A stretch of 64,000 nucleotides of DNA from Candidatus Micrarchaeota archaeon (GTDB taxonomy: Archaea > Micrarchaeota > Micrarchaeia > Norongarragalinales > JAPLXB01), in assembly GCA_026396285.1 (NCBI GenBank), contig JAPLXB010000045.1, positions 343 through 64,342 of the forward strand, read 5' to 3'. Positions 10,819-39,849 of this stretch are shown here, in pieces. The notes under the pieces are model-generated. The model made no database searches, was not told where the DNA came from, and saw only the letters and a program-made list of their open reading frames with translations. The position numbers were made by a program, and so were the translations under genes. The stretch's first letter is position 1; every line of letters starts with the position of its first letter.

Positions 10819-10862
10819 CTTTCACAAGTTTGTTAACCGAATTCTCGATCAGCCTGTGGTCA

Positions 10863-17980: not shown

Positions 17981-18053
17981 TCAGCGCCGCCCGGCTGGTT
18001 TGCGGCAAGCCGCAATCCACCCTGTTTCCGCCTTTCCAGCACTTATTCCGCTT

Positions 18054-19229
18054 TTATTCCTTCGCGCGCGCGGCCGCGATTTTCTTGGACAGCGAGTCCA
18101 TGCCCGCCTTCTGCTCGATGAGCGTCTTCCCAAGAGCCACGACCGTGTCATAGAGCGCCTTGTCGAATTCAAGGGCAACCGACTGGGTGGACGAGAACGC
18201 CTTCATCATCTTCGCGAAATCGGCCATCGCGTTCCTCGTCGCCCGCGTGTCCTCCCTGACCGCCGACAACCCGGTTTCAAGGCGCTGGCGCATGCTCGTC
18301 ACGTCAATGAATGAGCGCAAACTGTCCAGTTTCTTCTCGTAAGCGGCGAAGTCGCCCTTGTCCGGGAGCCCCGCGAGCCTTGCATCGACGGCCTTTGACT
18401 GCGCCCTCAGCCCTGCCGCGGCCGACGCGAATTCCCTGGTGTTTTCCGCAACCACTTCTGTGAGGCCGGTCCTCAGCTCCTTTGCCGCTGCCGCGAATTC
18501 CTTGGTGTTTTCAGCCAATGCCTCGCTCAAGTCCGAGCGCAGCGCCTTCATTTCGCTCTTCAGGCCGCCGGCGGCTTCGGCGAACTCGTCGGAAGCCGAG
18601 GAAACAGTATCGTTTAATTTGCCCACTTGGGCAGCTGTCGGGAGCGCCGAAACCTTTTCCTGCAGCGCATCAACCTCCTTCAAAAGTTTTTCAACGGGCT
18701 TCCCGCTCTCTTCAAGGGTCTTGAGGATGTCCTTCCACTCCTCGCGCGACGGGAATTCCTTGAGTTTCTGAACCGACGCCGTCAGCTCCTGTTTCGTCGG
18801 CAGGGCCCCGATTGACTTATCCAACTCGTTCAAGTCGTCGCTGGTCGGCATCGCGAGGATTTTCTTGGAGACGCTGTCAATCGCCGTGCCCACGGACTGC
18901 ACTTGGGTCCTGAGCGCGTTCTTGTTGGCCTCCATCAGCACGTCAACGTCGCGCAAAAAGTCGTCAAAAGAAGTCTTGGAAGGCACGGTCTCCATGCGGG
19001 CTGAAATGATTTTCAGCGCGTTGGATGCGTCGCCCGCGCCGCGGGCCGCCGAGTCGGCGGCGTTGATTATTTTCTCGGAGGTTCCGGAAAAATCGCTTTC
19101 AAGAGCCGTTATTTTCTTCCCGGTCAAGTCGGATGACTTTTTCAACTCGTCCACGGACTCGGACAGGGCATCCACTTTTTTCACGAGCTCCAGGAAAGCC
19201 GCTTCAAGCCGCGCCAGAGTGTCAACCAA
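18054..19229 (-). CDS. coiled-coil protein with internal sequence repeats (391 aa), last gene of the giant-protein operon
   Basis: Almost entirely predicted alpha-helical with heptad character. The segment ENTKEFAAAAKELRTGL is repeated as ENTREFASAAAGLRAQ. No catalytic motifs. The gene is convergent with the rpoA stop. Confidence 0.5.
   Translation of the reverse strand: MVDTLARLEAAFLELVKKVDALSESVDELKKSSDLTGKKITALESDFSGTSEKIINAADSAARGAGDASNALKIISARMETVPSKTSFDDFLRDVDVLMEANKNALRTQVQSVGTAIDSVSKKILAMPTSDDLNELDKSIGALPTKQELTASVQKLKEFPSREEWKDILKTLEESGKPVEKLLKEVDALQEKVSALPTAAQVGKLNDTVSSASDEFAEAAGGLKSEMKALRSDLSEALAENTKEFAAAAKELRTGLTEVVAENTREFASAAAGLRAQSKAVDARLAGLPDKGDFAAYEKKLDSLRSFIDVTSMRQRLETGLSAVREDTRATRNAMADFAKMMKAFSSTQSVALEFDKALYDTVVALGKTLIEQKAGMDSLSKKIAAARAKE
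18412..18520. repeat. ~70-bp imperfect tandem duplication inside the coiled-coil CDS
   Basis: The unit CTGCCGCGGCCGACGCGAATTCCCTGGTGTTTTCCGCAAC (18412..18451) recurs as TTGCCGCTGCCGCGAATTCCTTGGTGTTTTCAGCCAATG (18482..18520). Confidence 0.4.
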
Positions 19230-19260
19230 CCAGACCAGTCCCCTCTAATCCCTGAAAGCC

Positions 19261-20121
19261 TCAGACGACTGTCGCGGGCTTCTTTTCACTGCCGCCGGCG
19301 CCCGCGGTTACCGGAGTTTTCCTAGCCGCTTCCTCCACTTTAGCCCTAAGTTGCGCGAGTTCCTTGGCCTGCGCAGTCTCCTTGATTTGGACCTTGAGCT
19401 GTTCCACGTCCCTTATCGTGTCGTTGATTTCGCGGAACATGCTCTTCACGTCGTTCGCCAGGCGCAGGTACTCTTCAAAACGTTTCTGGAACTCCACGAA
19501 AATGAATTCCACCTTGTCCGCGTGCTTTTCGGACTCGGCCTCAAGCTTCTTTATAGAAGAAAGCTCGCCCTTGACTTCCTCGTTCAGTTGCAGCAGCGTC
19601 TCCGTGCCCCTGGTCGCCATCAAGTCGTTCCTGACAATCTTCATTTCCTCCCCGAGCTTCTCCTCGATGGTCTCCACTTTTTCAACCATCCCCTTGACAA
19701 CCTCTATTTTCGCGTCAATTTTCTTGACGTCCATTGAGAGCTTTTCCGGCTGGACCGCCTCGACGAGGGCCGACGCCTTCTCCGCCTGCAGCTTCATTTC
19801 CCTGCCCGACTTTTCGCTCTCCAACAGCATTGCCCGCAATTCGCCTATTTCCTCGTTGAGCCGCGCGAATTTTTCGTCGGAAATCTGGCGGTACTGCTTC
19901 AGCGCCTCAATCTGGCCCCTGGCCAGCTCGAGGTCGCGTTCGAGCAGCGCAGCGCCCTTTGCCCCTCCCTGGCCCCTGCCGGGCTCGGGCTTTTCCTCTT
20001 CCTCGGGCGTGTATTTTTCCTCGCCGGAAACCATGGCCAAGTCGGTCATTGTTTCCAGTTCTTCCTCAGTGGGCCCTGTCTTTTTGGAAATCTTTTTCTT
20101 GATGGAATCCAGGAAACCCAT
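19261..20121 (-). CDS. acidic coiled-coil protein (286 aa)
   Basis: Short N-terminal amphipathic segment MGFLDSIKKKISKK, an acidic linker, then about 200 aa of heptad-repeat helix. This is reminiscent of ESCRT-III / PspA-like or archaellum-accessory coiled-coil proteins, but I make no confident family call. Confidence 0.45.
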   Translation of the reverse strand: MGFLDSIKKKISKKTGPTEEELETMTDLAMVSGEEKYTPEEEEKPEPGRGQGGAKGAALLERDLELARGQIEALKQYRQISDEKFARLNEEIGELRAMLLESEKSGREMKLQAEKASALVEAVQPEKLSMDVKKIDAKIEVVKGMVEKVETIEEKLGEEMKIVRNDLMATRGTETLLQLNEEVKGELSSIKKLEAESEKHADKVEFIFVEFQKRFEEYLRLANDVKSMFREINDTIRDVEQLKVQIKETAQAKELAQLRAKVEEAARKTPVTAGAGGSEKKPATVV

Positions 20122-20175
20122 TCCAACCCGCCCGGCGGCGTTGGCGCCGCCGCGTGCATTAATGCAGGCGGGCTT

Positions 20176-20418
20176 TTAATCGCTTTCCTCCACTTCGTTG
20201 ACGTTCCAGGCGCCGCACTTTGGGCACTTGGAGGGTTTTGAAAGCACGACCAGCCGCGAGTTGCCCCAGTCCTCCGGCTCAAGCAGATACTCGTTCCTGC
20301 ACCCGTGGCAAATCACGTAAATGCGGCTTATGCCGCTGGATCTCCCGACCGGGAACAGGTTGGTGCGCCCAATGCCAAGGAACCTGCCGAGCCCGGGCTG
20401 CCTGCCGATGAAAACCAT
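20176..20418 (-). CDS. small zinc-ribbon protein (about 80 aa from the internal ATG)
   Basis: Two CxxC pairs (CHGC ... CPKC) spaced about 40 aa apart. The upstream in-frame extension to 20544 is Gly/Ala/Arg-rich and probably not translated. Confidence 0.5.
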   Translation of the reverse strand: MVFIGRQPGLGRFLGIGRTNLFPVGRSSGISRIYVICHGCRNEYLLEPEDWGNSRLVVLSKPSKCPKCGAWNVNEVEESD

Positions 20419-20573
20419 TCTTTTCCTGCGCTTTTTTGCGGCCGGAAGGCGGCCTGCGGCGTGCCCGGGGCCGCGCCCCCCGTCCCATGCCAAGCCGTCG
20501 CCGGCGGCCGGTCCAGCGTCCCCTGCGCCTTTTTCGTCATCCACAAAACCGCCTTTTCCGGCCGGCGCCCCTT

Positions 20574-23500
20574 TCAGACGCCGTGCTTCTTCGCCTGCGT
20601 CTCCACCTTCTGGGTGAGGGACTCCATGTAAATGTCCACTATGTTGAACGCGCCTTTCTTGAGCTTGTCGCGGACGATGTTCAGTTCCAGTTCAAGGTCA
20701 AGCACGTCCACTCCCTTCGCTTTTATGGCGGCAACCTTCTCCTCCAGCACCTCTATCCGCTGGTTGTACTCGTCGTACTTCTGGAGCTCGGTTTCCGAAA
20801 GGCGGACGATGTTGTGCTGCAGCGCCCTGTAGGTCACGAAGTACGGCGCGCCCCTGTTGTACTCGGGGTTGTGCATCATGCCGCTCCCGATTGCGGACCG
20901 GACGATGCTCCTCGCGGTCTCGTCCCCGAACTTGGTCCTGATACGCTCCAAGTCGCCCTCGTACTTGGTGCGCATCTGGATTTCCGTGGAAATGTTTGCC
21001 TTGATTTCGCCCACGAAGTCGCTCAGCACCTGCGAAATGAGTACCAGGCCCAGGCCCCATTTCCTGTACTCCCTCGCCGCCCGCTCTATCTGCACGAGGC
21101 CCTCGCCGCTTCCCCCGAACTTGGGCAGCAGGCGGTGGACTTCGTCGTAAACGAACAGCACCTTGAGCTTCGGCGACTCCTCGGGCTGGCTGGCAAACAC
21201 CTGCTTGACCGTGTTGGCGTAGAAAGAGTCAACCTGCTGCGGCGTCAGCCGCGAAGTGACGAACACCGTTATTTCGCCGGGCCTCGTCAGTTTCTTGAGG
21301 TCAACCTGCTGGTCGGCGTTCTTGACTACGACGATGTTCCCGTCAAAGGCGCGCGCCTCGCTCAGCGACATCCCGAACTTCTTGTACGCCGCCAGCATCT
21401 CCCTGTTCTTCTGCGGCCTCAGGAAACCGCTCCACTGCGCGGTCGGGTCAAAGACGACCACCGCGATGCCTTTCTTGAGCGCCTCTTCCGCAATCACCTG
21501 CGCCGCCACCGTCTTTCCGGACCCGCTTCCTCCCGCGACCAGCGTGTGCATAGTGAGTTTTTGGAAGTCCACGAACGCCCGCACGTTCGTTTCCGCGATG
21601 AGGCCGAGGAACCCGCCGTCGGGCCCTGGCTGGGGCAGCGTCGCGAAGTCAATTTTCGACAAATACCTTTTCATCTTCGCCTTCTGGTACCGGTCGTAGT
21701 AAGCGTAACTCGTGCCGGCGGTCACTGCGGCTCCGGCGAGCAGCAGGTAGAACAGCGGGACGCCCATGAAACGCATTTCAAGCAGGCCAATCTGCACCTT
21801 GATGTTCGCGAACGCCGAAATCGCGCGCGTCGTGTTCAGGACAAGCCGGTAGTAGGCGGTCGCCTTGAGCATGTAAGTGCCGACCGCAAGGTCCGGCGGC
21901 ACCGTGATTGACTTCGTTATAGTCTGCGAGCTCTCGAACTCAAACGGGTCCCCTGACTCGAAAACCACCGCGTCAGTGTCGTAGTTTATCAGGTAGAGCC
22001 TGACGATGCCGCTGACGCTCTTGGTGGCGCCGGTGTTGAACAAGTTGAGGTCCACCTTGAAACTCTGGCCCGGCGACACGTCGGTCTGGTACGGGACTAG
22101 TTTCAAGTCAATGAACTTCTCCTTCGTCTCGCCAACGCGGATGGTGACTGGCATTACCGCCAAGCCGAGTTCGTTAGTGAAAATAATCTGGCCGTAGTAC
22201 ATGCCTGGTTTTGTGTCCTCGGGGATGCTGATTGCGGCCATTACCTCCGCGGTCTCTCCCGGCGCAAGGGTAACCGAAGGCCTGACCGAGAAGAACGGGA
22301 CCGTGTCGCCGGTCGCCTGGATTGCGACGGTGGTCGCGGAAGCGTTCTGGATGTTCTTCACGCGCAGGGTGACCATCGTCTCCTCGCCAAGGAGCAGTTC
22401 GAGGTAAATGGTCTGGGGATAAATATCGAGCCCGATTTTGTTCTCCATTCCTCCGGTCAGGTTCAGGACGGCTTCCAGCGTCTCGTTCGTGGAGTTCAGT
22501 ATCTCTCCCTTGGCCTGGGAAATGATTTTCTGGACTTCCTTCGCAATCTCCTCGAGCGACGGCCCGATTGCCCCCACCGCCATCGCCGGGGGAGCGGTAT
22601 ACCCTGGCTGAGCCCCTCCACCGCCGCCGTAAACGGTGACGTACGTCGCCCCGGGCGCCACGCCCAACACGCTCTCGCCGGCAGCGTAGGCGCTGAAACC
22701 GGTTATGACCACGGTTATCGAGCCCGGCATCCCTCCCTGCCTGCCGACGACGTTCGTCAACGAAATCCAGCCGCTCGGGCACGCGAGCGAAGTGAAGCCC
22801 CAGTCCGCGCACCGCGCCACGAACACGTTGTCAATGTTGTCGACCTGGGTCACGTCAAACGGCAGCGCCAGCGTGCCCGAAAACGACGGCGCCGGACGGC
22901 CGTCGGTGTAACTGAAGTTCAGCGCGAGGATGAACAGTTTCCTCATTGACGGCACGAGCGCCGCGTACACCGGAACCGAGTCTATGCCGATTGAAAGGTT
23001 CTCCATCTGCGAGAACGACACGCCCGACAACACGAGCGTCGCGTTCAACGCCTTTATCACCACGTCATAGGTCCTGTTGTAGACGTTGACCGAATAGTGG
23101 CCGGTCGCGTTAGTTGAGAAATTCGAGACTGTGACGTTTGTGCCGGGCCTGAGGAGCGTGAAGTTCGTCACCGTCCCCCCGCCAACGGAATTGGCTATGC
23201 GGCCCACGAAGTTCGCGATGTTGTAATAAACCTCGAACGGCGCGGAAACGTTGCGCTGGTTGCCGTCCAAGTCAGTCGCGGACACGACTGCGGTGTACCC
23301 GCCCAGGATGGAGAAGTTGGACGAGACCCTCCACGTGCCGCTCACAGTGTTCCCTGAAACCAGTGACATCGTGTGAGTGGTCACGGTGCTGTCCGGCCAC
23401 GTCACGAACGCGGTGACAGTCGAAACCTGCCTGTTGTCGGAAACGGCGGCTGAAACCACTGCGTTGCTTCCCTGCTGCGCGTCCGTGGTCGTCACGCTCA

Positions 23501-26500
23501 CCGACGGCTGCGTGATGTCCTTGTAGTAGAGGATTGACGCGTTCCTTCTGGTGAATATAACCGGCCCGTTCGGCGACGAGTAGTTTCCAATGACTACGAA
23601 ATCATAGAACTGCGCGTCGGTCTTGGACGGCGCAGTGAACGAAAGGATTTTGGAACTGCCCGCCGCGGTCATGTTGACTTGCGAGGCTTCGGTGTCGTTG
23701 ACGAACACGCGGTAGGTGACGTTTTCCGTGATGTCCGCCGGCGTGTAAAAGTCCACGAGCCGCACGGTGGCGTTGATTGAGTCGCCGGGAATGATTTGCG
23801 GCGGTGCGGAAACGCTTTCCAATAGTATTCCGTAGAAGAACGAGTTGAATGAGATGTTGACTTGCTTGTTGCCACTGCTTTCATTCACCTGCAGCACTCC
23901 TGCATAGTGGGCGTTGGTCTCATTGGCAGTGTAATTCATGCGAATGGCGAACGACTGGCCGCCTGAAAGCGACGTGGACGAGTCGAGCAGGTTCGCGAAC
24001 GTCGTCATGTTTCCAAACAGCCCGAACTGGAAGTTCAGGAACGCGTCAGCGGTACCGGTGTGCGTGATGACCGTGTCGCTGTTGACCTTGTTCTCGTTCG
24101 ACACCGCGTTTATGACCATGGTGTCGCGGCTGAGCGACCAGGAATAGTTCAAAGGCGTCACAACGTTTGCTGTGAATCCCTTCGTGTAGCCCGTTCCCTG
24201 CACGCTGCACGAAAAGCTCCTGCCCCCGACTCCCCCGCTGGAGGACACGCCATAGTCCACTCCGACGGTCGTGGATATGTTCACCGGGTTGTCCAAGGCG
24301 ACTGTCCGCGGCGAAGGCGAATAGGAAACCGTGACATTGGGGCTGATTGACGTGGTGGAGACTGCGAATGGAACGTTGTCGTTGCCCGTCGCCTCTACTG
24401 TGAGGTTTTGCACCGTGCTGTGGCCGTGCTCGATGGTCAGCGAAGCCGGGAACGTGACGGTGAAGTTCGGGTTGGACAAGACGCTTATCAAAACCGGGGA
24501 TGCCGTGTAAATGCCGCTGACGCCGTTCGGATTAACCCACTTGACTATTGGGTTGAAGTAGTAGGTTCCAAGGGCCCTGGGCGGCACGCTGACGTTGACG
24601 AACGTGCTGAACCAGCCCGGAGCGAGGTTCGCGTATGAAAGGTTCGTGTAACTGAAGCCGCTCGTGTTCGCGCCGCTGAACGAGCCGGTCACGTTCACCG
24701 AATAGCCCTTCACGTTGCCGCCGTTTACGATGAGAAACGGGATGGAAACGTTCTTTCCAACTGATTTCGTCACGTTCGCGACGCTCACCGCCTGGCCCGA
24801 GGCATTAATGTTCGTGGTGGGAACCACTTGGAACGAGAACTGCGTGGAATTAAGCTGGCCCGTGACGTCATTCACTCCAAAGGTCACGGCGTAGTCGTAA
24901 ACTCCCGTGATGTTCGTGTTGCCGAAGTCCACGTAAAACCTCCTGACGTCCTTGCAGAGGCCGCCGCAGTAGATGTCCGGGTCCTCCCAGTCGCTTGGGG
25001 GCGCAAAAGACCAGGAATAGCCGGGGGCCGTGACGTTGAAGAAGGCGGTCGAAGCGTTCAAGCCGTTGATTTCGTCGTCCGTGGCCCACACCTCAAGGGT
25101 GACGGACTTGTTGAATTCGACGAAACTCCTCCTAACTCCTTCCGTGATTGTTGACACGTTTATGAACTGGGGCGGCGCGTTGCTGACGTTGAAGAACACG
25201 TAAACGTCCCTGTTCGTCGGGTCCGCGGAACCGCTTTGCAAATGCGCCCTGATGCCATACCCGGGGGAGGCGTTGCTGCTCTCCTGGCCACTCTGGCCGA
25301 AGCAGATGTTTACAGAAGAGCCTTTTGAAACGGAAACCGTGTTGTTGTTGCAGTTGACTCCGCCGATGTTGATGTTCGGGCCGCACGTGCCTATGTAAGT
25401 GCAGTTCTTGTACCCGGGAACCGCGTCATACGACACCGAAAAGGTCAGGTCGATGTTTCCCGGGTTTTCAATGGTGTAATTTGCTATGATTCCCTTCTGG
25501 TTCAGCGCGAACGCGTTGGACTGGTTCGCGGACGGCACGATGACCCACGACGCGTTCGTGAGGACGTTGACGTTCACTTGAAGCGACTGGTTCACGTCCT
25601 GGCTCCCAGAGTAATACCCGGTCGTGTTCAGGAATCCATGGTATGCGCCGGGCGCCGCCTGGGCCGGGACCGACACGCTGAACGTCACGGTCTTCGTCGA
25701 GCCGGAGTTGGGAATCTTGGTGAAGCTCGTCCACTGGCTCGGGGAGAAGGAAATCCAAGAGGAGTTTATGGCGGTGGCAGTGAAGTTGTTGTTGACCGGG
25801 CCGAGCACAACGTTCCCGTCATTCGTCACCCCGATGGCTATTGTCTGCGACTGTCCCGGATACAAGTTCATGTCGAGCGAGGGAGTGATGTTGTATGACA
25901 GGTGCTTCGTCACCGCGCCGCCGATTTGCGTGGATGTGGTTATTGTCGTGTTGGATAAGTCGTTGTTCGTCCACGTCCCGTTCCAAGTCACCTGGTAATA
26001 CTGGCCCGGATTCAGCCCGGCGGGCAGCGTGACGTTGAAAACGCTGTAACAGTTGCCGCTCTGGATGAGTATGGCGCCGCACGTGGTGCCAAGTTCCACG
26101 ATAGACTCCATTAAGCCTATCTGGGACACGCCGATGTCCGGGTACGTCATGTCCGCCTTGTTGCTGTTGTTAAGACTAACAGTGATGTTCACTGAATAAG
26201 GCACGCTCGGCGTGTCAACGGTCGCGGGCGCGTTGAGCGTCCCGTCCGCCAGCTGTTCCTGGAACCAATCCTGGCCCGCCTTTTCTGCATAATCGTATTT
26301 CGTGCTGCTGTTGATGCCGGTCGCGAGTCGCCGGTCGAGTTGTAGAGCGTGATGCTCCGGGCGCCGTTCAACTGCGGCGCTGCCGACGCGTTGACCCACG
26401 TGATGTAAACCTCGTTCAGGAACGGCGTCTTGGAAGAGTCGTTTGAAGCGAAAACCGCGCGGTACCTCAGGTAACGCGAAACCGGTGCCTTGGCGAAGTC

Positions 26501-26633
26501 GCCGTAAAAGCCGCCGTACGCGGCAATCGTGGAAGAATTCGAATAGGAGTCGAGGGGCGTCCACTTGTAACTGTTGTTCGACGACGACGTGTACATGGTG
26601 ATGTTCGTTCCCGGCGGCTCGGTCGTCCACCAC
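20574..26633 (-). CDS. giant surface protein, C-terminal portion (ORF 2 of 2): Asn/Thr/Ser-rich Ig-like region, transmembrane helix, cytoplasmic HerA/FtsK-superfamily ATPase
   Basis: The first ~100 aa of the ORF (MVDDRAAGNEHHHVHVV...) are out-of-frame junk. Genuine sequence starts at ...ATGINSSTKYDYAEKAGQDW. A single hydrophobic helix GVPLFYLLLAGAAVTAG lies near the C-terminus. It is followed by a 379-aa cytoplasmic domain with Walker A LVAGGSGSGKT (21510..21533), Walker B VLFVYDEVH (21135..21158), and an arginine-finger region REYRKWGLGLVLISQ typical of DUF87/HerA/VirB4-like ATPases. Confidence 0.8.
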   Translation of the reverse strand: MVDDRAAGNEHHHVHVVVEQQLQVDAPRLLFEFFHDCRVRRLLRRLRQGTGFALPEVPRGFRFKRLFQDAVPERGLHHVGQRVGSAAVERRPEHHALQLDRRLATGINSSTKYDYAEKAGQDWFQEQLADGTLNAPATVDTPSVPYSVNITVSLNNSNKADMTYPDIGVSQIGLMESIVELGTTCGAILIQSGNCYSVFNVTLPAGLNPGQYYQVTWNGTWTNNDLSNTTITTSTQIGGAVTKHLSYNITPSLDMNLYPGQSQTIAIGVTNDGNVVLGPVNNNFTATAINSSWISFSPSQWTSFTKIPNSGSTKTVTFSVSVPAQAAPGAYHGFLNTTGYYSGSQDVNQSLQVNVNVLTNASWVIVPSANQSNAFALNQKGIIANYTIENPGNIDLTFSVSYDAVPGYKNCTYIGTCGPNINIGGVNCNNNTVSVSKGSSVNICFGQSGQESSNASPGYGIRAHLQSGSADPTNRDVYVFFNVSNAPPQFINVSTITEGVRRSFVEFNKSVTLEVWATDDEINGLNASTAFFNVTAPGYSWSFAPPSDWEDPDIYCGGLCKDVRRFYVDFGNTNITGVYDYAVTFGVNDVTGQLNSTQFSFQVVPTTNINASGQAVSVANVTKSVGKNVSIPFLIVNGGNVKGYSVNVTGSFSGANTSGFSYTNLSYANLAPGWFSTFVNVSVPPRALGTYYFNPIVKWVNPNGVSGIYTASPVLISVLSNPNFTVTFPASLTIEHGHSTVQNLTVEATGNDNVPFAVSTTSISPNVTVSYSPSPRTVALDNPVNISTTVGVDYGVSSSGGVGGRSFSCSVQGTGYTKGFTANVVTPLNYSWSLSRDTMVINAVSNENKVNSDTVITHTGTADAFLNFQFGLFGNMTTFANLLDSSTSLSGGQSFAIRMNYTANETNAHYAGVLQVNESSGNKQVNISFNSFFYGILLESVSAPPQIIPGDSINATVRLVDFYTPADITENVTYRVFVNDTEASQVNMTAAGSSKILSFTAPSKTDAQFYDFVVIGNYSSPNGPVIFTRRNASILYYKDITQPSVSVTTTDAQQGSNAVVSAAVSDNRQVSTVTAFVTWPDSTVTTHTMSLVSGNTVSGTWRVSSNFSILGGYTAVVSATDLDGNQRNVSAPFEVYYNIANFVGRIANSVGGGTVTNFTLLRPGTNVTVSNFSTNATGHYSVNVYNRTYDVVIKALNATLVLSGVSFSQMENLSIGIDSVPVYAALVPSMRKLFILALNFSYTDGRPAPSFSGTLALPFDVTQVDNIDNVFVARCADWGFTSLACPSGWISLTNVVGRQGGMPGSITVVITGFSAYAAGESVLGVAPGATYVTVYGGGGGAQPGYTAPPAMAVGAIGPSLEEIAKEVQKIISQAKGEILNSTNETLEAVLNLTGGMENKIGLDIYPQTIYLELLLGEETMVTLRVKNIQNASATTVAIQATGDTVPFFSVRPSVTLAPGETAEVMAAISIPEDTKPGMYYGQIIFTNELGLAVMPVTIRVGETKEKFIDLKLVPYQTDVSPGQSFKVDLNLFNTGATKSVSGIVRLYLINYDTDAVVFESGDPFEFESSQTITKSITVPPDLAVGTYMLKATAYYRLVLNTTRAISAFANIKVQIGLLEMRFMGVPLFYLLLAGAAVTAGTSYAYYDRYQKAKMKRYLSKIDFATLPQPGPDGGFLGLIAETNVRAFVDFQKLTMHTLVAGGSGSGKTVAAQVIAEEALKKGIAVVVFDPTAQWSGFLRPQKNREMLAAYKKFGMSLSEARAFDGNIVVVKNADQQVDLKKLTRPGEITVFVTSRLTPQQVDSFYANTVKQVFASQPEESPKLKVLFVYDEVHRLLPKFGGSGEGLVQIERAAREYRKWGLGLVLISQVLSDFVGEIKANISTEIQMRTKYEGDLERIRTKFGDETARSIVRSAIGSGMMHNPEYNRGAPYFVTYRALQHNIVRLSETELQKYDEYNQRIEVLEEKVAAIKAKGVDVLDLELELNIVRDKLKKGAFNIVDIYMESLTQKVETQAKKHGV

Positions 26634-29600
26634 TTAACCAAGTCCCAGTTCACTGCTTCGCCGGCGTCAATCGTGTGCTCGTAGTAGCCGGCAGTGTTCC
26701 CGGTTGAGAGGTTGATGTTTCCGGAGTTTATGGAGACGCTCGCATTCGAATAAGTTCCGCCGGTCCAGTCCGCGGAACCCGTTTCGGTGATGGTGTTGTT
26801 GGCCCACGAGTCGTTCCAGTAATACGCGCTGACGTTCACGTGCACGCCGCCGATGTCACTCCAAGTGGCGGTCTTGGCGAAGCCCGCAACCGTCGGCGGC
26901 GCCCAGGCGAAGAACGGGTCGGGCGAGTAAGTGCCGCTGCACTGGCGGCACGTGCGAGTGAAATTGATTGTGCCGTTTGTCCCGCTGCCCGACGGACTAT
27001 ACCCGCCGAGGGCGGTAACTGGACCGTAGTAAAGCAGCGAGGAGAACAACGCGTTTATTTTTCCGGCGTTACCGCCCGTGACAGTACTCCCGCCTTGTCC
27101 GCCGTTCGCATCAATAGTCTCAAAAATCAGCATGGTTCCGGTAAGGTTTACTGTCACGTTTCCTCCATTTCCTCCATATACCTTCCACTCAGTACTGCTG
27201 GCGCCGCATACCTTAATTTGATGCAAGTATGCGGTCTGTCCAGTCAACTCTACAGTTCCACCCGACCCGCAAACACTGGCAACAGTCCCACCACTATTCC
27301 ATCCCACGGCGCCAGTCGAAGTTATCGTCGTCAAGTTTATCGTCTGCGCCGCCACCCTAATCGCTCCTCCTGAGCCGCCATAGCCAGCATAGCCGCCAGC
27401 GCCAACGCCGTCTCCGCCAATTGATTTTATTTCAGTCCCATTTATCGCCTGGGCGATTACTGTAATGTTTCCAGTCCCTCCGCCATACGAGGTGCCAGCG
27501 CCATTCGTGCACTGCGCATAGCCTCCGACTGATTGAATGATCCCTAAGACCAGGATTTGAGACGAATTCATTAGTATGTTGCCTCCGCGCCCGCCATGGG
27601 CAAAGGAATATGTCCCGCTTGTGCTGCCGTAAGCGGCGCCTCCGCTCGAAGTTATGTTTGCCACTACGGTCTGCTGTGTGGAATTAATTGTTATAATTCC
27701 GCCTGAACCTCCATGGGGGTTGCCGCCGCCGGTATGATACGCTGACCCGCCATTAGACCTGACTAAGGTCGTTACGGTTATCGTCGGCGCTATCAGTTCG
27801 ACATTTCCTCCATCAGGCCCATAAACATCAAGTGGAGTGCCGTAGGAATACAAACCGGCTGAAACGTCTATTTGGGAAAGCCTAAGCGAACTGCCGGCGT
27901 TTATGTTCACGTCGCCTCCTTTGCCAGCGAGATAGTCGACTGCGCCGTTGGAATTGCCTCCGTTCGCGTTAACCGACGCCGCGGTGACATTGCCGGTCGC
28001 GTTTATTTTCAACGGGCCCCCCGGGCTGCCGGCTGTGGTTATCGTCGTGGCGTTTACCGAACCGTTCGCGTTAAACCTCACCGTTCCACCCGAACCGTAA
28101 CCGTAGGACGCACCAGATCCTCCTGATGTTGTTATTGTGCCCGCGTTTATTGTTCCGTTCGCGTTTATTGTGAGGTTTCCTCCCGCCCCCCCGAAGCCAT
28201 AGCCCGCTCCTCCTGTTGACGATATTGTTGAAACGTTTACTCCCCCGCCCGCGTTTATCGTGACCACGTCGGCATTACTCCCATCAAAAGCCGGAATAGC
28301 ACCATTTTTCGCTCCTCCGTCTGCAGCAATTGAATTGACTGTGACCTGGCCTGTTGCATTTATTGTCACTGCCCCTCCCTGACCAGTGTAGTACAGGCCG
28401 CCCTCGCTCGCCGTTCTAATGTTCGTGACTGTTACTGAGCCGTTCGCGTTTATCGTCAGCGGCCCTCCCGAGTAGCTTCCATCGTTGGCTGACGTGCCTG
28501 TTCTAGTTCCTGTTCCTATGTTCGTGGCTGTTACTGAGCCGTTCGCGTTAATCGTCACCGGCCCTCCAGAGCCGCCGTAGAAATCGGAGAGCTGCCCGTC
28601 TTCGGTTGATATCGTCGTGACGTTTATCGCGCCGTTCGCGTTCAGCGTTACGCTCCCGCCGCTGGACTGGTACCGGCCGCCGGCTCTCGCACTTATCAGG
28701 GAAGCTTTTATCGTGCCTGACGTGTTTATTTCAATGGAGCCACCATTCCCCCCGCCGGAGTTAAATTGTGAGCGGTTGCCGCCCATCGCCGTTATCGTGG
28801 TCACGTTCACTGGGCCGCTAGCGTTTAGCCTGATGCTTCCTCCAGACCCTGGATTATCCGGACCGGTTATGCCTGATGCGGTTATTGTCGTGCCGTTAAT
28901 TTGCTGCGCGTTTATGTCAATCGTGCCTCCATAATTGCCACGGCTCCGCGCGTCTATCGACGCTACATTGACCGCGCCCGTCGCGTTGATATAGACATTT
29001 CCCGGTAGTCCGTAACCGCTGAAAACAGTGTACTGATTTACTGTCGTTATCGTTCCTGCATTTATTGTCTGTGCAGTCAGACTGACATTTCCACTTCCTC
29101 CTGCTGCAGCGCCGTTTTTCTTGGTGGTGTCTATCGCATCCGGGTTTAAGGAATTTGCCCTGATTAAAAGATTGGTGCTGTGCGCGGTTATGCTGCCGGA
29201 GAACGTGTCCGAGGCATTCAAATGAACGTCTCCATAAGCCGGAATGCTTTGACTGCCGGTGAAGAAAAAGTTGCTGAAGGCCATGTTTGTTGAGTTGATG
29301 CCCAGCGGGTTCGAATCATGCCAAAACGACGATGAATAAAACGAGGCGTTCTGGTTCACCTGGAGCGACAGCGCCCCCGCAGAGTATACTGTCGCGCCGC
29401 CCGAGACGTTCAGGTACTCGTATGTCCTCGTCGCGGCCGCCATGTTGCACTGGATTCCATAGATTTTCGCGTTCGAGCCCTGGGCAGGCCCGCAGTTGAG
29501 CGAGTCGGGCTCGAGCCACGGCACGGCGTTAAATGACGGGTTGTTCGCGTAAAGCACGCTCGTGTCGTTTCCCTGCCAGTTGGGGAGGGTGAAGTAATAC

Positions 29601-31867
29601 GCGTCTGCCCCGGTCCAAGAGCCTCCTGGCGAGAACGACGTGGCGGCGAGGGAAACATTGACTATGTACCCGGTGCTGCCACTAACTACAGCGGTGGAGG
29701 AAAACGACGCGTTGGCCGCGGAAATGTCGATGTTGCCACCAGGGGAGGACCTGATAGTCCCCGCCTGATTGTAGTTGTTCGCAAAAAACCTTATCGAGTG
29801 AAGGTAGCCGCCTGACCCTTCGCCAACGAATCCGCCGTTTTCTATCGTCACGTTGCCGGAGAAATTGAAAGTGTGCGTGGTGTCGCTAACAAGGCCCGAG
29901 GTCCTGGTTATCCCCGCCCCGTTTTTGACGACGAGGTTGGTTCCGTTTATCGCGTAGTTTACGACCCTGATGTAGTGGAATTGGGTTATGTTGCACGTGT
30001 CCCCTCCCTCAAGGCTTCCTTGGTCGCACGCGAACACGGGAATCGTGAACTGGTCGATGAGCGAGAAGCTTGCATACCCGGTTTTTGAGCACGTGACGTT
30101 AAAGGACGCCGCGCCGTTCAGGTTGTTGGGGTTGACGGTCTTGTTGTACTCGTAAAGGCCCGAGGAGGCGTTGTAAGCCATGCTCGCGTCCGCGGCCCAC
30201 GAGCCGGCCGAGTTTTCGGAAAACAGGCACGTTGCGCCAGTGACTGGGTTGCCGGCAGCGCCCGTGTAATTCGCGTAAAACACTGGCTGGCGCGAGTAAT
30301 TCAACTGCTGTGCGATTGGGAGGTTTTCCATCGAGTCCCAAATCGCGAGGGCGGACGAGTAGTTTATCTGGAATGATACGTTGCTGACGACCGGGCTGGC
30401 CTGCGTGGAGTTGCTCGTGAGGTACATTTTGTACCGCATGTACCTCGCCTGGATTGGGGCCGAGGACGCGCTGGTTATCGCCTGGCCCGACGACGTGTAA
30501 TAGGCGGTCGGGTCAGCGAGCGGCCCGTGCCAGCCGTTCCACGTTACGCCATTGACTGAGTAATTGAGCTGGAAACTGAGGGCGGTGCCCGCCGGCACCA
30601 TGGCGTTGTAGAAGATTTTTTCCCACCTAACGCTGCTGCCGGCGTCGAAAGTGCTTGACTCGTAAGTGCCGTTCAGGTAATACCCCGGCGAACCGGTCGG
30701 GGTGTATGTCCACGTTTCGCCGTTGTTGCCGGTGGCGTTGTTTCCGCCGAACATGAGGAAAATCTTTTGCGCCGCGTAATACGCCATCGAGTGGTTCGCG
30801 CGCACAGGCGGCGGCGCCGGGTAAGTCACGTCAGACCACGTGTCGCCTCCCACGTCATAGGTGCGGATTGAATCAAGGTAACTTGCGCCGGTGTATCCGC
30901 CGAATTCAAGGAAAAGCCCCTGGTCTTGGTCAAACAACATTGTGTGGAACGCTTTCGCCCCCCCGGCTGCTTTCGCTCCCCAGGCGTTGGTGTTTGAATA
31001 GTATTCGCGCGTGTCGCTCAGGTAATCGGTTCCGTTGTATCCGCCGTCGAGTATGAACGTGCCTGAAGAAGTGGAGTATTCAAGCGCTGCGCCATAACGC
31101 GGCGAAGGCCAGTTTACTCCGAACGTCGTGTAGTTCACCCACGTGTTCTGCGTGAAATTGAATGCCCACAACTCGTTGAAAACGTTGGTGCCGTTGGTCC
31201 CGCCGAACAAGAAAATCGACTGGTTGGAGCCATGGTAAGCCATCGAGTAGTGATAGAGGGCTGGCGGGGATGCGGCGGGGCTGAGTAGCGTCCACGTGTT
31301 GTCCGAATAATTATAGGCCCACGTGTCGCTGAAAACGTTGGTGCCGTTCGTTCCGCCGAAAAGTATGATCCTGCCGCTGAGCGGGTCGTAAACCATTTTC
31401 ATGCCATAGCGCGGGGACGGGGCCGTGGACGGGTTGCGGTCAGTCCAGTTGTTGTTTGTGGAAAAATTATATGCCCGCGTGTCATTCAACGGGCCTGTGC
31501 CGTAGCCTCCGAACAACACCATGATTGCGGCGTTGTTTTCATAAGCCATTGCAAACGAGTTCCTGTCCGACGGCGAAGCCGCGGGCGTGAACTGCGTCCA
31601 GTTGACGAACTGCTTGAGCGTGAGGTTAGTGACTGAAACGTTCATCGTGTTGCTGAACGTGCCTTGGGTCCATTTCGCGGTGTCCTGGGACAGGTTTTTC
31701 AACGGCCCCTCCGCCATGAACAATCCGGTCACGGGGATGTTCACGCCCTCGAAATACTGGTAGAACAAGCCGATGCCGGCGACCACTGCGGCGCACGCTA
31801 ACACGATGGCAAGCCTCTTAGCCCACGGACTCTTGTTTCCACGTTTTTGGGGGGACATGCAGCCCAC
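26189..31867 (-). CDS. giant surface protein, N-terminal portion (ORF 1 of 2): signal anchor, Kelch beta-propeller, then Gly-rich beta-helix-like repeat array
   Basis: Signal-anchor helix LAIVLACAAVVAGIGLF. Five or six Kelch-like blades with F/LFGG and W-x-Y motifs (aa ~95..390). About 650 aa of ~30-aa repeats of the form GG.GG.VTINANG.V.VT.I.T. N-x-S/T sequons throughout. The last ~45 aa of this ORF (RPASTAARNTIMQKRRARIG...) are Arg-rich out-of-frame read-through. The true continuation is in the overlapping frame of the next ORF. Confidence 0.8.
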   Translation of the reverse strand: MGCMSPQKRGNKSPWAKRLAIVLACAAVVAGIGLFYQYFEGVNIPVTGLFMAEGPLKNLSQDTAKWTQGTFSNTMNVSVTNLTLKQFVNWTQFTPAASPSDRNSFAMAYENNAAIMVLFGGYGTGPLNDTRAYNFSTNNNWTDRNPSTAPSPRYGMKMVYDPLSGRIILFGGTNGTNVFSDTWAYNYSDNTWTLLSPAASPPALYHYSMAYHGSNQSIFLFGGTNGTNVFNELWAFNFTQNTWVNYTTFGVNWPSPRYGAALEYSTSSGTFILDGGYNGTDYLSDTREYYSNTNAWGAKAAGGAKAFHTMLFDQDQGLFLEFGGYTGASYLDSIRTYDVGGDTWSDVTYPAPPPVRANHSMAYYAAQKIFLMFGGNNATGNNGETWTYTPTGSPGYYLNGTYESSTFDAGSSVRWEKIFYNAMVPAGTALSFQLNYSVNGVTWNGWHGPLADPTAYYTSSGQAITSASSAPIQARYMRYKMYLTSNSTQASPVVSNVSFQINYSSALAIWDSMENLPIAQQLNYSRQPVFYANYTGAAGNPVTGATCLFSENSAGSWAADASMAYNASSGLYEYNKTVNPNNLNGAASFNVTCSKTGYASFSLIDQFTIPVFACDQGSLEGGDTCNITQFHYIRVVNYAINGTNLVVKNGAGITRTSGLVSDTTHTFNFSGNVTIENGGFVGEGSGGYLHSIRFFANNYNQAGTIRSSPGGNIDISAANASFSSTAVVSGSTGYIVNVSLAATSFSPGGSWTGADAYYFTLPNWQGNDTSVLYANNPSFNAVPWLEPDSLNCGPAQGSNAKIYGIQCNMAAATRTYEYLNVSGGATVYSAGALSLQVNQNASFYSSSFWHDSNPLGINSTNMAFSNFFFTGSQSIPAYGDVHLNASDTFSGSITAHSTNLLIRANSLNPDAIDTTKKNGAAAGGSGNVSLTAQTINAGTITTVNQYTVFSGYGLPGNVYINATGAVNVASIDARSRGNYGGTIDINAQQINGTTITASGITGPDNPGSGGSIRLNASGPVNVTTITAMGGNRSQFNSGGGNGGSIEINTSGTIKASLISARAGGRYQSSGGSVTLNANGAINVTTISTEDGQLSDFYGGSGGPVTINANGSVTATNIGTGTRTGTSANDGSYSGGPLTINANGSVTVTNIRTASEGGLYYTGQGGAVTINATGQVTVNSIAADGGAKNGAIPAFDGSNADVVTINAGGGVNVSTISSTGGAGYGFGGAGGNLTINANGTINAGTITTSGGSGASYGYGSGGTVRFNANGSVNATTITTAGSPGGPLKINATGNVTAASVNANGGNSNGAVDYLAGKGGDVNINAGSSLRLSQIDVSAGLYSYGTPLDVYGPDGGNVELIAPTITVTTLVRSNGGSAYHTGGGNPHGGSGGIITINSTQQTVVANITSSGGAAYGSTSGTYSFAHGGRGGNILMNSSQILVLGIIQSVGGYAQCTNGAGTSYGGGTGNITVIAQAINGTEIKSIGGDGVGAGGYAGYGGSGGAIRVAAQTINLTTITSTGAVGWNSGGTVASVCGSGGTVELTGQTAYLHQIKVCGASSTEWKVYGGNGGNVTVNLTGTMLIFETIDANGGQGGSTVTGGNAGKINALFSSLLYYGPVTALGGYSPSGSGTNGTINFTRTCRQCSGTYSPDPFFAWAPPTVAGFAKTATWSDIGGVHVNVSAYYWNDSWANNTITETGSADWTGGTYSNASVSINSGNINLSTGNTAGYYEHTIDAGEAVNWDLVKWWTTEPPGTNITMYTSSSNNSYKWTPLDSYSNSSTIAAYGGFYGDFAKAPVSRYLRYRAVFASNDSSKTPFLNEVYITWVNASAAPQLNGARSITLYNSTGDSRPASTAARNTIMQKRRARIGSRNSWRTGRSTRPRPLTRRACLIQ
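26950..29000. repeat. in-frame tandem repeat array (~30-aa Gly-rich beta-helix-like units) within the giant gene
   Basis: At least 20 successive units such as GGSVTLNANGAINVTTISTEDG, GGPVTINANGSVTATNIGTG and GGAVTINATGQVTVNSIAADGG. The DNA is correspondingly repetitive (many GGx GGx ... ACC ATC AAC GCx runs) and generates the spurious antisense ORFs at 27872..28126 and 28617..28934. Confidence 0.6.
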
Positions 31868-31884
31868 TTTTTAGGGTTTTCCGC

Positions 31885-31960
31885 TTTTTTAATGGTTACC
31901 TGCCTGGGGCTGGGCGCAAGAAATAAAAACCAGTTTGTTAAACAAGATTTAACAATGTTA
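31885..31960 (-). promoter_or_regulatory. putative promoter/operator of the giant-protein operon
   Basis: On the gene strand, a TATA-like ATTAAAAAAG (31885..31894) sits 18 to 27 nt upstream of the ATG. Further upstream are two adjacent near-palindromes, TGTTAAACA (31936..31944) and TAACAATGTTA (31950..31960), that share the half-site TGTT/AACA. Confidence 0.3.
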
Positions 31961-32055
31961 TCAAAACCGTGGTGGCGCGTTAACGGCGTTGTGATGGCCT
32001 TTCATCCTTTCATTGGCGCTTTGAACGGTTTTGAAACGGTTGAGGGGGCGGTGGT

Positions 32056-32364
32056 TTGGCCGGTGAATTCGTTGGGTTCAGGGCGCCGCAGCAGTTGACG
32101 AAAACGGTTGCGTGGCTCGCGAAACTCGAGGGCAAGGACAAGTCCCAGGAATACCGGGAAGTGTTCGAGGCGGGATTGCGGGAAAAGCGCCGCGAGCTTG
32201 CGCTTTCCAAGTACCTGGCCGGGGGGACGAGCGTGGAAAAGGCGGCTGAAATCGCCGGCGTCTCGGTGTGGGAGATGCTTGACGTGCTGGAAGAGAAAGT
32301 GGTTTCCATAAACTTTGATTTTGAGGGCTTCGTCGCCGCGCTCGCGCGCGAGAAGGAGAAGTGA
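32056..32364 (+). CDS. UPF0175-family antitoxin (HTH-containing)
   Basis: The conserved C-terminal segment KAAEIAGVSVWEMLDVLEEKVV matches the UPF0175 hallmark (AAelaGvs.weF...L...gi). The stop overlaps the start of the downstream DUF3368 toxin gene (ATGA-type overlap at 32361..32364). Confidence 0.6.
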   Translation: MAGEFVGFRAPQQLTKTVAWLAKLEGKDKSQEYREVFEAGLREKRRELALSKYLAGGTSVEKAAEIAGVSVWEMLDVLEEKVVSINFDFEGFVAALAREKEK

Positions 32365-32879
32365 TTGCCGTGCTGGCGGTGGCTGACAGCGTAACTCTAA
32401 TAAAATGCATGAGGGTCCGCGGCCTCCCGGAACTCCTGAGGAAGAGGTATTCCCGGGTCATTGTGCCCCAGGCGGTTTTTGCCAACGTGGTGGAAGCCGG
32501 CCGCGGGCTGGGAAAGCCCCATGTCGTGGATTTGGAAAAGGATTTCGCGAAAGGCTTTTTTGAGAGGAAAAGCGCGCCCCGCGGCGTTTCCGAAGCCTTG
32601 GTGGCCGAGGGCTTGGGCGCGGGCGAGGCCGAGGCAGTGGCGCTCGCCAAGGAGGTGGAGGCCGACGAACTGCTTGTTGACGAGAAGCCCGCCCGGAAAA
32701 TCGCGGTCCGGCTCGGAATCCATTCAATGCCCCTTGCGGCGCTGATAATCGCAGGGGCCCAGAAGAAGGCGGTTTCAAGGGAAAACGCGAAGAAAATGCT
32801 GGAAGAGCTGCTTGCTAAAAACTACCGCATAAGCGCCGCGCACTACATCAGCATAATTGAAATGGTTGACGAAGCGTGA
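32361..32879 (+). CDS. DUF3368-family PIN-like toxin, cognate to the UPF0175 antitoxin
   Basis: The D.S.LI.L, LGAGEAEAVALAKE and LLVDEKPARKIA motifs are diagnostic of DUF3368 (LG.GEaeaiaLA ... lDD..AR..A). The gene pairs with the upstream UPF0175 gene. Confidence 0.65.
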   Translation: MIAVLAVADSVTLIKCMRVRGLPELLRKRYSRVIVPQAVFANVVEAGRGLGKPHVVDLEKDFAKGFFERKSAPRGVSEALVAEGLGAGEAEAVALAKEVEADELLVDEKPARKIAVRLGIHSMPLAALIIAGAQKKAVSRENAKKMLEELLAKNYRISAAHYISIIEMVDEA

Positions 32880-33084
32880 CGGGGTTGCCAGCTGCCCGGA
32901 AAAAGGGCGCAAGGAAAATAATATAAACGCCCCGCCCCCACTTTCTCTTCACTCCTTTTTTGGAATTGAATGGGGAGTAAACCCGGACTGCTTGGGCGAC
33001 GGCTTCGCCATCGCCGGTGTAGCAGGGTTTGAGAACCATTCCGAAAACGTTTCACGTTTTTTCGGATTGCTTGAAGTGCGTGCA

Positions 33085-33390
33085 ATGGACATTGACCGGG
33101 CCATCAGGACAGCAGTGGATACTGGAAAGGTTTTTCTGGGCGCGGACAAGTCAAGGAAGCTTTCCCTCACCGGCGGGGCCAAGCTAGTCGTGATTGCGGC
33201 GAACTGCCCCGAGGACGCGGGCAGGGACCTGAGGCGCTACTGCGAACTCTCCAGCATACCCGTAGTCCCTTACGCGGGGACCAGCATGGAATTGGGCACC
33301 GTGTGCGGGAAACCGTTTCCAGTTTCCGCGCTGAGCGTGCTTGAGGAAGGGACGTCGGACATAATGAAGGCGGCAGAGGGAAAAAAATAA
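33085..33390 (+). CDS. rpl30e: 50S ribosomal protein L30e
   Basis: 101 aa from the internal ATG. The sequence AIRTAVDTGKVFLGADKSRK...GGAKLVVIAAN...ELSSIPVVPYAGTSMELGTVCGKPFPVSALSV aligns along its length with archaeal L30e. The 76-aa upstream extension in the ORF track has no homology. Confidence 0.8.
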   Translation: MDIDRAIRTAVDTGKVFLGADKSRKLSLTGGAKLVVIAANCPEDAGRDLRRYCELSSIPVVPYAGTSMELGTVCGKPFPVSALSVLEEGTSDIMKAAEGKK

Positions 33391-33431
33391 GCAGGGCAGC
33401 GGGACGGCTGGCGTCATGTTTTGGGCGGTGA

Positions 33432-33860: not shown

Positions 33861-33938
33861 AAAACGGCGCTGAAGGATGCTGGATGATACTAAATTGATG
33901 ATTGATGCTGGAAATCGATTGTTTTATGGTGATGATGG

Positions 33939-34367: not shown

Positions 34368-34377
34368 AGTGATTTGA

Positions 34378-35031: not shown

Positions 35032-35131
35032 TAATGGTTGCCAAGGCCGCAGGGGGCGCTGGCTCCCTGCTGGCGCGGAGCGCAAGGCAAGGAGTAAAAC
35101 GTCACTAAGCGTTTTTTTGAAGTGATTTTCC

Positions 35132-39639: not shown

Positions 39640-39849
39640 TTCCGCACCGAAAGCGTTTTGCGCGCGCAGCGATTTAAACCCTTATCCGGAGCGGCCGGCG
39701 GAAAGGAAAACGTTTTTAAAGAAACTTTGGCATAATGAGGTAGCGAAATGGCCGACAGGCTTAACATGGCTATTTTTTCGTGAAGTTTAACCAAAGGTGG
39801 GTGTTTTCCACCGCGAAAACGCTCCATCATAGTTTGGGGGGGATTTGAA

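Follow-up and report, generated by a model that had tools for sequence, protein, structure and literature searches.

Lineage-specific DNA at three junctions of the RNA polymerase–ribosomal protein gene string in a Micrarchaeota genome

The gene string encoding RNA polymerase subunits, ribosomal proteins and elongation factors is highly conserved in archaea, and the locus described here raises the question of how such a string came to be interrupted by unrelated genes and what these genes are. The locus lies within a 64,000-nt stretch (hereafter, the window) of contig JAPLXB010000045.1 (positions 343 to 64,342; assembly GCA_026396285.1), which belongs to a metagenome-assembled genome (MAG) of a Candidatus Micrarchaeota archaeon, a tiny organism of symbiotic type from the DPANN group, and has a GC content of 0.58. 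The initial annotation of the window had placed accessory genes at three junctions of the string: between rpoA and L30e, between EF2 and EF1a, and downstream of S10. We consider it highly probable that an ancestral string gained lineage-specific DNA at three places, and that the largest block represents a DPANN host-interaction locus of resident type, with no recognisable mobile-element character.

All core genes from RpoH to S10 were found by Pfam, in canonical order and on the + strand. RpoH (10776-11105; Rpb5_C) is followed by RpoB'' (11140-12693) and RpoB' (12721-14562), which together cover the families Rpb2_1-7, and by RpoA (14591-17980; Rpb1_1-5), in which A' and A'' are fused in a single open reading frame (ORF) of 1129 amino acids (aa). 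The middle conserved unit, L30e-NusA-KH-S12-S7-EF2 (33085-37321; Pfam and synteny), starts with L30e (33085-33390) and ends with EF2 (35132-37321). EF1a (39850-41121) and S10 (41238-41549) complete the string. The accessory genes that had been named at the three junctions are likewise present at the positions assigned to them. The fused RpoA (1129-1134 aa) occurs in the window and in the related loci L166 and L002. In several more Micrarchaeota loci RpoA gave one continuous match, and in others two separate matches, which in some cases (L005, L012, L027) are 0.4-1.8 kb apart.

Among GTDB species representatives, the best relatives of the window EF-2 are Micrarchaeota MAGs with at most 71% identity. 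Synteny was examined in 80 EF-2-centred loci from species-representative genomes, onto each of which the window proteins were mapped; closer relatives were recruited through L30e homologues. The window rpoA extends to 17980, and L30e begins only at 33085. The same two genes are separated by only 110-226 nt in the closer relatives L166 and L167-L169. The RpoA of L166 is 83% identical to that of the window and likewise fused (1129 aa), while L167-L169 share 86-87% identity in the RpoA C-terminus and 82% in L30e. Nucleotide identity between the window and L166 is 80% up to 17979; in blastn comparisons with the relatives, homology ends at 17979/17980 and restarts at 33075-33083. In a direct alignment, L166, L167 and L168 proved colinear with window positions ~32905-33084 over their entire rpoA-L30e spacer. 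The right boundary of the insert is therefore at ~32905 and not at 33075-33083, and the inserted DNA comprises ~17981-32904 (~14.9 kb), bounded by the rpoA stop codon on one side and the L30e promoter on the other. Accordingly, the 15-kb interval originally proposed (17981-33084) holds for ~17981-32904, but its last ~180 nt (about 32905-33084) are the conserved promoter and leader of L30e.

The compact arrangement prevails beyond the close relatives. The gap between RpoA and L30e is below 400 nt in 24 of 25 other Micrarchaeota loci and in all nine non-Micrarchaeota loci, mostly Methanobacteria. In Methanobacteria the string is compact from RpoH through S10, with median gaps of 26 nt (RpoA to L30e) and 172 nt (EF2 to EF1a). 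The lone Micrarchaeota exception, L002, has 1.9 kb between RpoA and L30e, where two Cys-rich secreted proteins unrelated to the window cargo are encoded. The 14.9-kb block at rpoA|L30e is thus a derived, inserted state. Related genomes sharing the interrupted order had been named as the finding that would speak against an insertion; L166 and L167-L169 show rpoA and L30e uninterrupted.

Mis-assembly at 17981..18053 and 31868..32055 had been raised as a concern. It is excluded by two Logan contigs that reproduce both junctions of the block. Contig L082 (run SRR20698646) corresponds to window positions 17128-21857 with 99.98% identity and crosses the left junction; contig L083 covers the N-terminus of the giant gene described below, UPF0175, DUF3368, L30e and NusA, and crosses the right one.

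The second junction, EF2|EF1a, carries four genes on the - strand. These include a VapC toxin gene (37328-37696; Pfam PIN, 81.8 bits vs a cut-off of 23.6); an upstream ORF for a VapB-like antitoxin of 67 aa (37680-37883), which overlaps the PIN gene by 17 nt and has no antitoxin family match in PHROGs or NCBIfam; and a pair of paralogues, par327 (37973-38863) and par254 (38875-39639), whose products are 36% identical (E 1e-54). This region has the lowest GC content in the window (0.529), and the GC content at third codon positions (GC3) of par327 is 0.60. In two relatives, L172 and L173 (EF-2 83% identical; L173 is from the same sample as L166), EF2 and EF1a are separated by a different cargo, hisD-hisC-hisB, of 3.7 kb and on the same strand; homology to the window ends at 37317 and restarts at 39706. 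The his genes (L172:2920-6375; L173:1187-4642) comprise hisD, a hisC-HAD fusion and hisB, in the orientation of the translation genes. EF1a is not located downstream of EF2 in 49 of 50 other, more distant Micrarchaeota loci, and the EF2-EF1a linkage is a feature of the sub-clade to which the window belongs. The description of EF-2 and EF-1alpha as separated by a VapBC pair and two paralogues is thus correct in content, and this cargo is lineage-specific, but the direct EF2-EF1a link against which it was set is absent from most Micrarchaeota.

At the third junction, S10 is followed by two helix-turn-helix (HTH) paralogues on the - strand (41557-42120 and 42117-42674; 31% identical, E 8e-17), of which the first alone matches HTH_17 (24 bits, short of the cut-off of 27). 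Next comes a tRNA-Ser(UGA) gene on the + strand (42723-42886), identified by ARAGORN on the spliced sequence. The relative L170 (EF1a 90% identical) lacks the HTH genes: its S10 is followed after 182 nt by tRNA-Ser and then by HAD, Nudix and more genes that match the window in order. Similarly, tRNA-Ser(TGA) is found 35-110 nt past S10 in Methanobacteria. The window tRNA gene contains two introns, one of 61 nt at the non-canonical position 30/31 in the anticodon stem (42753-42813) and one of 18 nt at the canonical position 37/38 (42821-42838). When both are removed in silico, the sequence folds into a perfect cloverleaf, complete with the long variable arm and UGA as anticodon; the unspliced gene was missed by default ARAGORN and by Rfam. 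Blind trials of one or two deletions left the identity of this tRNA ambiguous; homology to the exons of the L170 tRNA resolved it. The HTH pair and the tRNA that had been reported downstream of S10 are therefore both real, the former being absent from L170 and the latter recognisable once two introns are removed. Taken together, the homology breaks and the uninterrupted or differently filled junctions of relatives bear out the claim that lineage-specific accessory DNA interrupts the conserved string at three junctions.

Two side observations concern tRNA genes. The tRNA-Ser of L170 (L170:2451-2535) has only a canonical intron of 15 nt, and the 3' half of its T-arm and its acceptor stem are apparently missing (a 19-nt alignment gap); truncation of the gene, an error in assembly or a split tRNA might each account for this. 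The sole tRNA in the window at the Rfam gathering threshold (707-768, + strand; 35.3 bits) is not reported by default ARAGORN and may be atypical as well.

The sequences preceding L30e and EF1a suggest how the string is organised. The L30e upstream region (32905-33084, + strand), which lies outside the insert, contains a TATA-like box, AAAATAATATAAA, and a leader, and was aligned with L166, L167 and L168; the L30e spacer of the relatives has the TATA-like box AAAA(n)ATATAAA followed by the conserved leader. The EF1a upstream region (39706-39849, + strand), aligned with L170, L171 and L172, contains the box GAAAACGTTTTTAAAG and a leader of ~55 nt ending in a T-run. Within 39706-39790, the GAAAACGTTTTTAAAG box is invariant, and the ~55-nt segment GGCATAATGAGATAGCGAAATAGCCGACAGGCTTAACATGGCTATTTTTTCGT that follows it is highly conserved in L170, L172 and even L171, where the upstream genes are different. 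Boxes resembling the TATA element and the transcription factor B recognition element (BRE) are thus retained upstream of both genes, which points to separately promoted units and not to one operon. The single super-operon assumed initially is not consistent with these promoter-like blocks and leaders, which are found in the window as well as in its relatives. Since the blocks are kept upstream of L30e and EF1a, the inserts lie between transcription units. Namely, the two larger inserts are at unit boundaries, and the third is between S10 and tRNA-Ser. A perfect 7-bp hairpin formed by the inverted repeat TTGCGGC-AA-GCCGCAA (18000-18017), terminator-like, is located between the convergent rpoA and the last gene of the block.

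The conserved leaders may have functions of their own. That of L30e, in the window as in L166, L167 and L168, contains TGGGGAGTAA, the hairpin GGCGACGGCTTCGCCATCGCC, and TTGAGAACCATTCC, and might be an autoregulatory element of the K-turn type for an L7Ae-family protein. For the EF1a segment GGCATAATGAGATAGCGAAATAGCCGACAGGCTTAACATGGCTATTTTTTCGT, a role as 5' leader, attenuator or small RNA is conceivable. Rfam gave no credible match for either conserved leader. One further motif, CGGTGTAG, seen upstream of L30e and HAD, was dropped (4 occurrences vs about 1 expected).

Our model of the locus assumes three ancestral units, each of which would have been separately promoted: [rpoH-rpoB''-rpoB'-rpoA], [L30e-NusA-S12-S7-EF2] and [EF1a-S10-tRNA-Ser]. 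Extra DNA would have been gained at both inter-unit boundaries and at the S10/tRNA-Ser junction. The giant-gene cluster of the largest block would be transcribed convergently to rpoA and end at the shared hairpin; the convergent orientation and the hairpin suggest insulated transcription. The core units would retain their own promoters, leaving core expression undisturbed, and we propose that this is why insertions survive at these positions. The idea that rearrangements target intercistronic gaps holds as regards location, since the inserts do lie between units. As regards targeting, survival of harmless insertions is simpler, and the simplest reading is selection against disruptive insertions.

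The largest block is dominated by a gene for a giant surface protein on the - strand. It was called as two ORFs, 20574-26633 and 26189-31867, which overlap by 445 nt in different frames. The homologous ORF of the metagenomic locus L086 is unbroken (>3,920 aa) and colinear with window frame -2 down to 26339 and with frame -1 from 26321. The two ORFs therefore represent one gene (~3,758 aa), whose frameshift was placed at 26321-26339 by alignment to L086 and three-frame translation. A giant-protein operon convergent to rpoA had been described at this place; the convergent giant gene is present, but its two giant ORFs are a single frameshifted gene.

The N-terminal part of the gene (26339-31867) encodes a signal anchor, a Kelch beta-propeller recognised through Pfam Kelch families, and G/N-rich repeats recognised as internal coding repeats. 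The C-terminal part (20574-26321), delimited by Pfam and by analysis of transmembrane (TM) segments and sequons, encodes an ectodomain region with immunoglobulin (Ig)-like and NPCBM_assoc modules, a TM segment (about 21695-21764), a DUF87/HerA-superfamily ATPase and a terminal coiled coil. In the joined protein, a hydrophobic N-terminal segment (aa 19-37) precedes an ectodomain of 3,328 aa composed of the Kelch propeller, G/N-rich repeats and Ig-like/NPCBM_assoc modules, with beta-helix-like parts. Kelch, NPCBM_assoc and weak Ig-like matches were the only Pfam hits to the ectodomain at E<=0.01. The ectodomain has 137 N-X-S/T sequons (4.1 per 100 aa) vs one in the cytoplasmic part; in cytoplasmic proteins the density is 0.1-0.35 per 100 aa. 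A TM helix (aa 3361-3385) and a K/R-rich stretch lead into the cytoplasmic part of 373 aa, which carries Walker A and B motifs and a coiled-coil tail. The motifs read GGSGSGKT and VLFVYDEVH, and the corresponding positions are invariant in the alignment of homologues. The predicted topology starts with a signal anchor and an N-glycosylated ectodomain, continues through the TM helix and ends in the cytoplasm with an FtsK/HerA/VirB4-superfamily ATPase and its coiled-coil tail.

The ATPase matched Pfam DUF87 (42.4 bits vs a cut-off of 23.2) and, weakly, ResIII (16.8 bits). NCBIfam matches to CedD, TraC (VirB4), TraD and HerA were weak and distant, as were the HerA-like matches in PDB (E 7e-5 to 3e-3). 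Single-sequence AlphaFold models of the ATPase domain (predicted local distance difference test, pLDDT, 49.9) and of par254 (pLDDT 42.6) were too poor for a fold search; within the former, the last ~70 residues, heptad-rich in sequence, are predicted as long helices with pLDDT 74-90. The family search was performed with the TM and ATPase module as query, a whole-protein query being swamped by low-complexity candidates (one match). Exhaustive search of 1.84 billion representatives returned 1,145 relatives, including 364 with E<1e-30. Their lengths span about 400-6,253 aa, and nearly all carry the module at the C-terminal end; among named entries, the closest is 'DUF87 domain-containing protein [Ca. 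Micrarchaeota]'. A HerA-like piece upstream of L30e in L001, considered as an orthologue, is only 25% identical and was set aside as a generic HerA-like ATPase. Giant surface genes also recur near this locus within the clade. In L171 (EF1a 87% identical) a gene for >3,657 aa with faint Big_1/CarboxypepD_reg matches is located 3 kb downstream of S10 (L171:14768-21272, - strand).

Three smaller genes lie downstream of the giant gene on the same strand. A 122-aa ORF with a C-terminal CxxC...CxxC motif (20176-20544) had no family matches and no homologues in the related loci. The 286-aa coiled-coil protein cc286 (19261-20121) is a conserved partner encoded directly downstream of the giant gene: among 81 loci with the giant-gene module (80 on metagenome contigs plus L085), tblastn detected a cc286 homologue downstream in 61, on the same strand in all but one, and clustering placed the family in 57 loci, with the offset having a median of 383 nt. 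None of the 81 loci has rpo or ribosomal protein genes within 10 kb. The last gene of the cluster encodes a 391-aa coiled-coil protein, cc391 (18054-19229), for which only weak coiled-coil Pfam matches were obtained and which has no homologue among the 81 loci. The closest cc286 homologues measure 583-631 aa (L086:11771-13555; L087:4415-6310; L089:1275-3026), roughly the sum of cc286 and cc391, and the two window proteins may be a split version of one longer partner. With phmmer and blastp cc391 had no match to the partner proteins, and a profile of their tails scored a weak 5.7 bits.

The right end of the insert carries a toxin-antitoxin-like pair on the + strand. A UPF0175 antitoxin-like gene (32056-32364; 34.2 bits vs a cut-off of 27.9) overlaps by 4 nt with a DUF3368 (PIN-like) toxin-like gene (32361-32879; 17.3 bits, below the cut-off of 27.3); the precomputed Pfam listing for L083 gives DUF3368 unmarked. 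The AT-rich divergent spacer between the giant gene and UPF0175 (31868-32055) contains the near-palindrome GTTTGTTAAACAAGATTTAACAATGTT, which may be a toxin-antitoxin operator or a divergent promoter pair.

As to origin, neither composition nor gene content singles out the block as foreign. Its GC content is 0.576 vs 0.584 for the whole window; the GC3 of its genes is 0.68-0.81, and their codon bias B relative to other window genes is 0.13-0.29 (0.13 for the ATPase half; native range 0.15-0.40). The discontinuity in GC content and codon usage that the initial annotation had suggested looking for is thus absent from this block. Scans of the window revealed no integrase, transposase or relaxase Pfam domains, and no direct or inverted repeats bracket the 14.9-kb block. 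The small accessory proteins tested had no PHROG relatives and no informative NCBIfam match; a plasmid search with par254 found no relatives, and viral contigs yielded none for the ATPase domain, par254 and the HTH protein HTH187. The block may have been relocated within the genome or transferred from another DPANN archaeon, and the giant-gene cluster probably has a surface or host-contact role.

An integrated provirus, plasmid or island resembling an integrative and conjugative element, stabilised by a toxin-antitoxin addiction module, would account for the toxin-antitoxin-like pair at one end of the block, for the distant relationship of the ATPase to the conjugative proteins VirB4, TraC and TraD, and for the HTH_17 excisionase-like genes beside a tRNA at the third junction. 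We nevertheless regard such an element as quite improbable: no mobility genes or bracketing repeats were detected, GC content, GC3 and codon bias are native, the proteins tested lack PHROG, plasmid and viral-contig relatives, and the giant gene with its partner forms a module of DPANN chromosomes, known from 81 metagenomic loci. The reverse polarity, with the block ancestral at this site and lost by deletion in L166 and L167-L169, appears very improbable. The site is indeed variable within the order Norongarragalinales, the more distant L002 having 1.9 kb there and L001 unrelated genes upstream of L30e. However, the L002 cargo is unrelated to that of the window, rpoA and L30e are directly adjacent in 24 of 25 Micrarchaeota loci and in all non-Micrarchaeota loci compared, none of the 81 giant-gene module loci has rpo or ribosomal protein genes within 10 kb, and the relatives' compact spacer is colinear with the window's L30e leader; parsimony also disfavours deletion. 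An assembly or binning chimera is scarcely credible. Assemblies do often fail at giant repetitive genes and at pairs of paralogues, and one Logan contig is indeed broken inside par254, but L082 and L083 cross both junctions of the 14.9-kb block, composition is uniform, and flanking synteny with L170 continues on the far side.

The placement of the inserts might also be adaptive, in line with the highly expressed context invoked in the initial annotation: the surface or host-interaction genes, or the toxin-antitoxin modules, would be coupled in expression to growth rate via the neighbouring core genes. Three separate inserts within one 32-kb conserved locus would fit this explanation, as would the cargo that other Micrarchaeota have at NusA|S12 (5/28 loci) and S7|EF2 (14/42 loci), which includes a 1,209-aa beta-helix protein; in 16 more Micrarchaeota loci S7 was not found in the 3-10 kb examined upstream of EF2. 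Nonetheless, adaptive placement seems unlikely, since the genes at these sites are diverse and for the most part unrelated (flavodoxin, a GT2 glycosyltransferase, HTH regulators, his genes, unknowns), the giant cluster is convergent to rpoA and not co-oriented with it, and conserved promoter-like blocks flank each insert.

Gain of lineage-specific DNA at three places of an ancestral string, with a resident-type host-interaction locus as the largest block, remains our preferred explanation. Several points weigh against it. The promoter and terminator roles are read from conservation only. The Logan assemblies are probably derived from the sample of the MAG itself and thus test the assembler and not the data; moreover, contig L081 starts at 39449 inside par254, so that the EF2-side junction of the EF2-EF1a insert has no confirmation from a second assembly. 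This break falls within the par254/par327 paralogue pair, in the same run, and an exact copy of the window EF2 is not on record. The frameshift in the giant gene may mark a pseudogene or an assembly error, and the gene is possibly inactive in this assembly. Finally, no Laminin_G or peptidase domain was found in the giant protein by Pfam at E<=0.01, and its likeness to the SPEARE proteins is one of architecture, drawn from published descriptions.

A broader generalisation is possible and is offered tentatively: unit boundaries of the string may be recurrent permissive 'safe-harbour' sites in Micrarchaeota, at which lineage-specific surface or host-interaction genes and toxin-antitoxin modules would build up, and the giant ATPase protein together with cc286 may form a widespread two-gene surface machine of DPANN archaea.

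SPEARE proteins are the closest known counterpart of the giant protein. Described examples are NAR1_1133 of Ca. Nanohaloarchaeum antarcticus and SVXNc_0300 of Ca. Nanohalococcus (Hamm 2019, PMC6642349; PMC10266531, 2023). They consist of a signal peptide, an Ig-rich ectodomain, a TM segment, a VirB4/TraG-like ATPase and a coiled coil (PMC10266531). The earlier study described the ATPase region as ResIII-like, reported that the ectodomain contains at least one laminin-G domain as well as a serine protease or toxin-like domain, and noted the conserved cytoplasmic part in Micrarchaeota too (Hamm 2019, PMC6642349); the later one disputes protease and nuclease domains as defining the family (PMC10266531). 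The genomic position of SPEARE genes is variable (PMC6642349, PMC10266531). By architecture, the window protein is SPEARE-like. Like the SPEAREs, it is encoded by a very long ORF, begins with a signal or anchor sequence and has a huge ectodomain in which adhesion-type repeats occur; a single TM helix near the C-terminus leads into a cytoplasmic FtsK/HerA/VirB4-superfamily ATPase that ends in a coiled coil. The combination of a conserved cytoplasmic part with a variable ectodomain is also shared. In contrast to SPEAREs, it has a Kelch propeller and G/N-rich repeats, with no laminin-G, serine protease or toxin-like domain detected, and its gene is frameshifted. The gene downstream encodes a coiled-coil protein (61/81 loci), as opposed to the second VirB4/TraG ATPase of nanohaloarchaea. 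The pairing of the giant gene with a cc286-type partner is absent from the SPEARE descriptions in PMC6642349 and PMC10266531.

Similar comparisons can be made for the string itself. The window contains all members of the archaeal str/RNA polymerase super-operon in canonical order and orientation, as in Methanobacteria, where the string is compact and includes tRNA-Ser(TGA) after S10. It differs in its interruptions of 14.9 kb, 2.4 kb and about 1.1-1.2 kb and in the fusion of rpoA; in most other Micrarchaeota, EF1a-S10 is unlinked from EF2. Multi-intron tRNAs are known from Thermoproteales and ARMAN-type archaea, and the window tRNA-Ser(UGA) resembles them in its two predicted introns, one canonical and one non-canonical.

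Genomic islands at operon boundaries offer a close parallel to the whole arrangement. Common traits are lineage-specific cargo, toxin-antitoxin modules (VapBC and the putative UPF0175/PIN-like pair), and a site between units that relatives fill with different cargo. Unlike such islands, the window has no integrase, att repeats, large-block shift in composition or targeting of a tRNA 3'-end. The case is thus one of real but ordinary genome-island biology, with accessory DNA gathering at permissive sites in a DPANN genome, and it leaves general principles unchanged. A highly conserved archaeal string that takes lineage-specific DNA only at transcription-unit boundaries helps to calibrate synteny-based annotation of DPANN genomes. 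In addition, a SPEARE-like locus has been mapped in Micrarchaeota which, with its conserved coiled-coil partner, represents candidate host-contact machinery in an uncultivated lineage.

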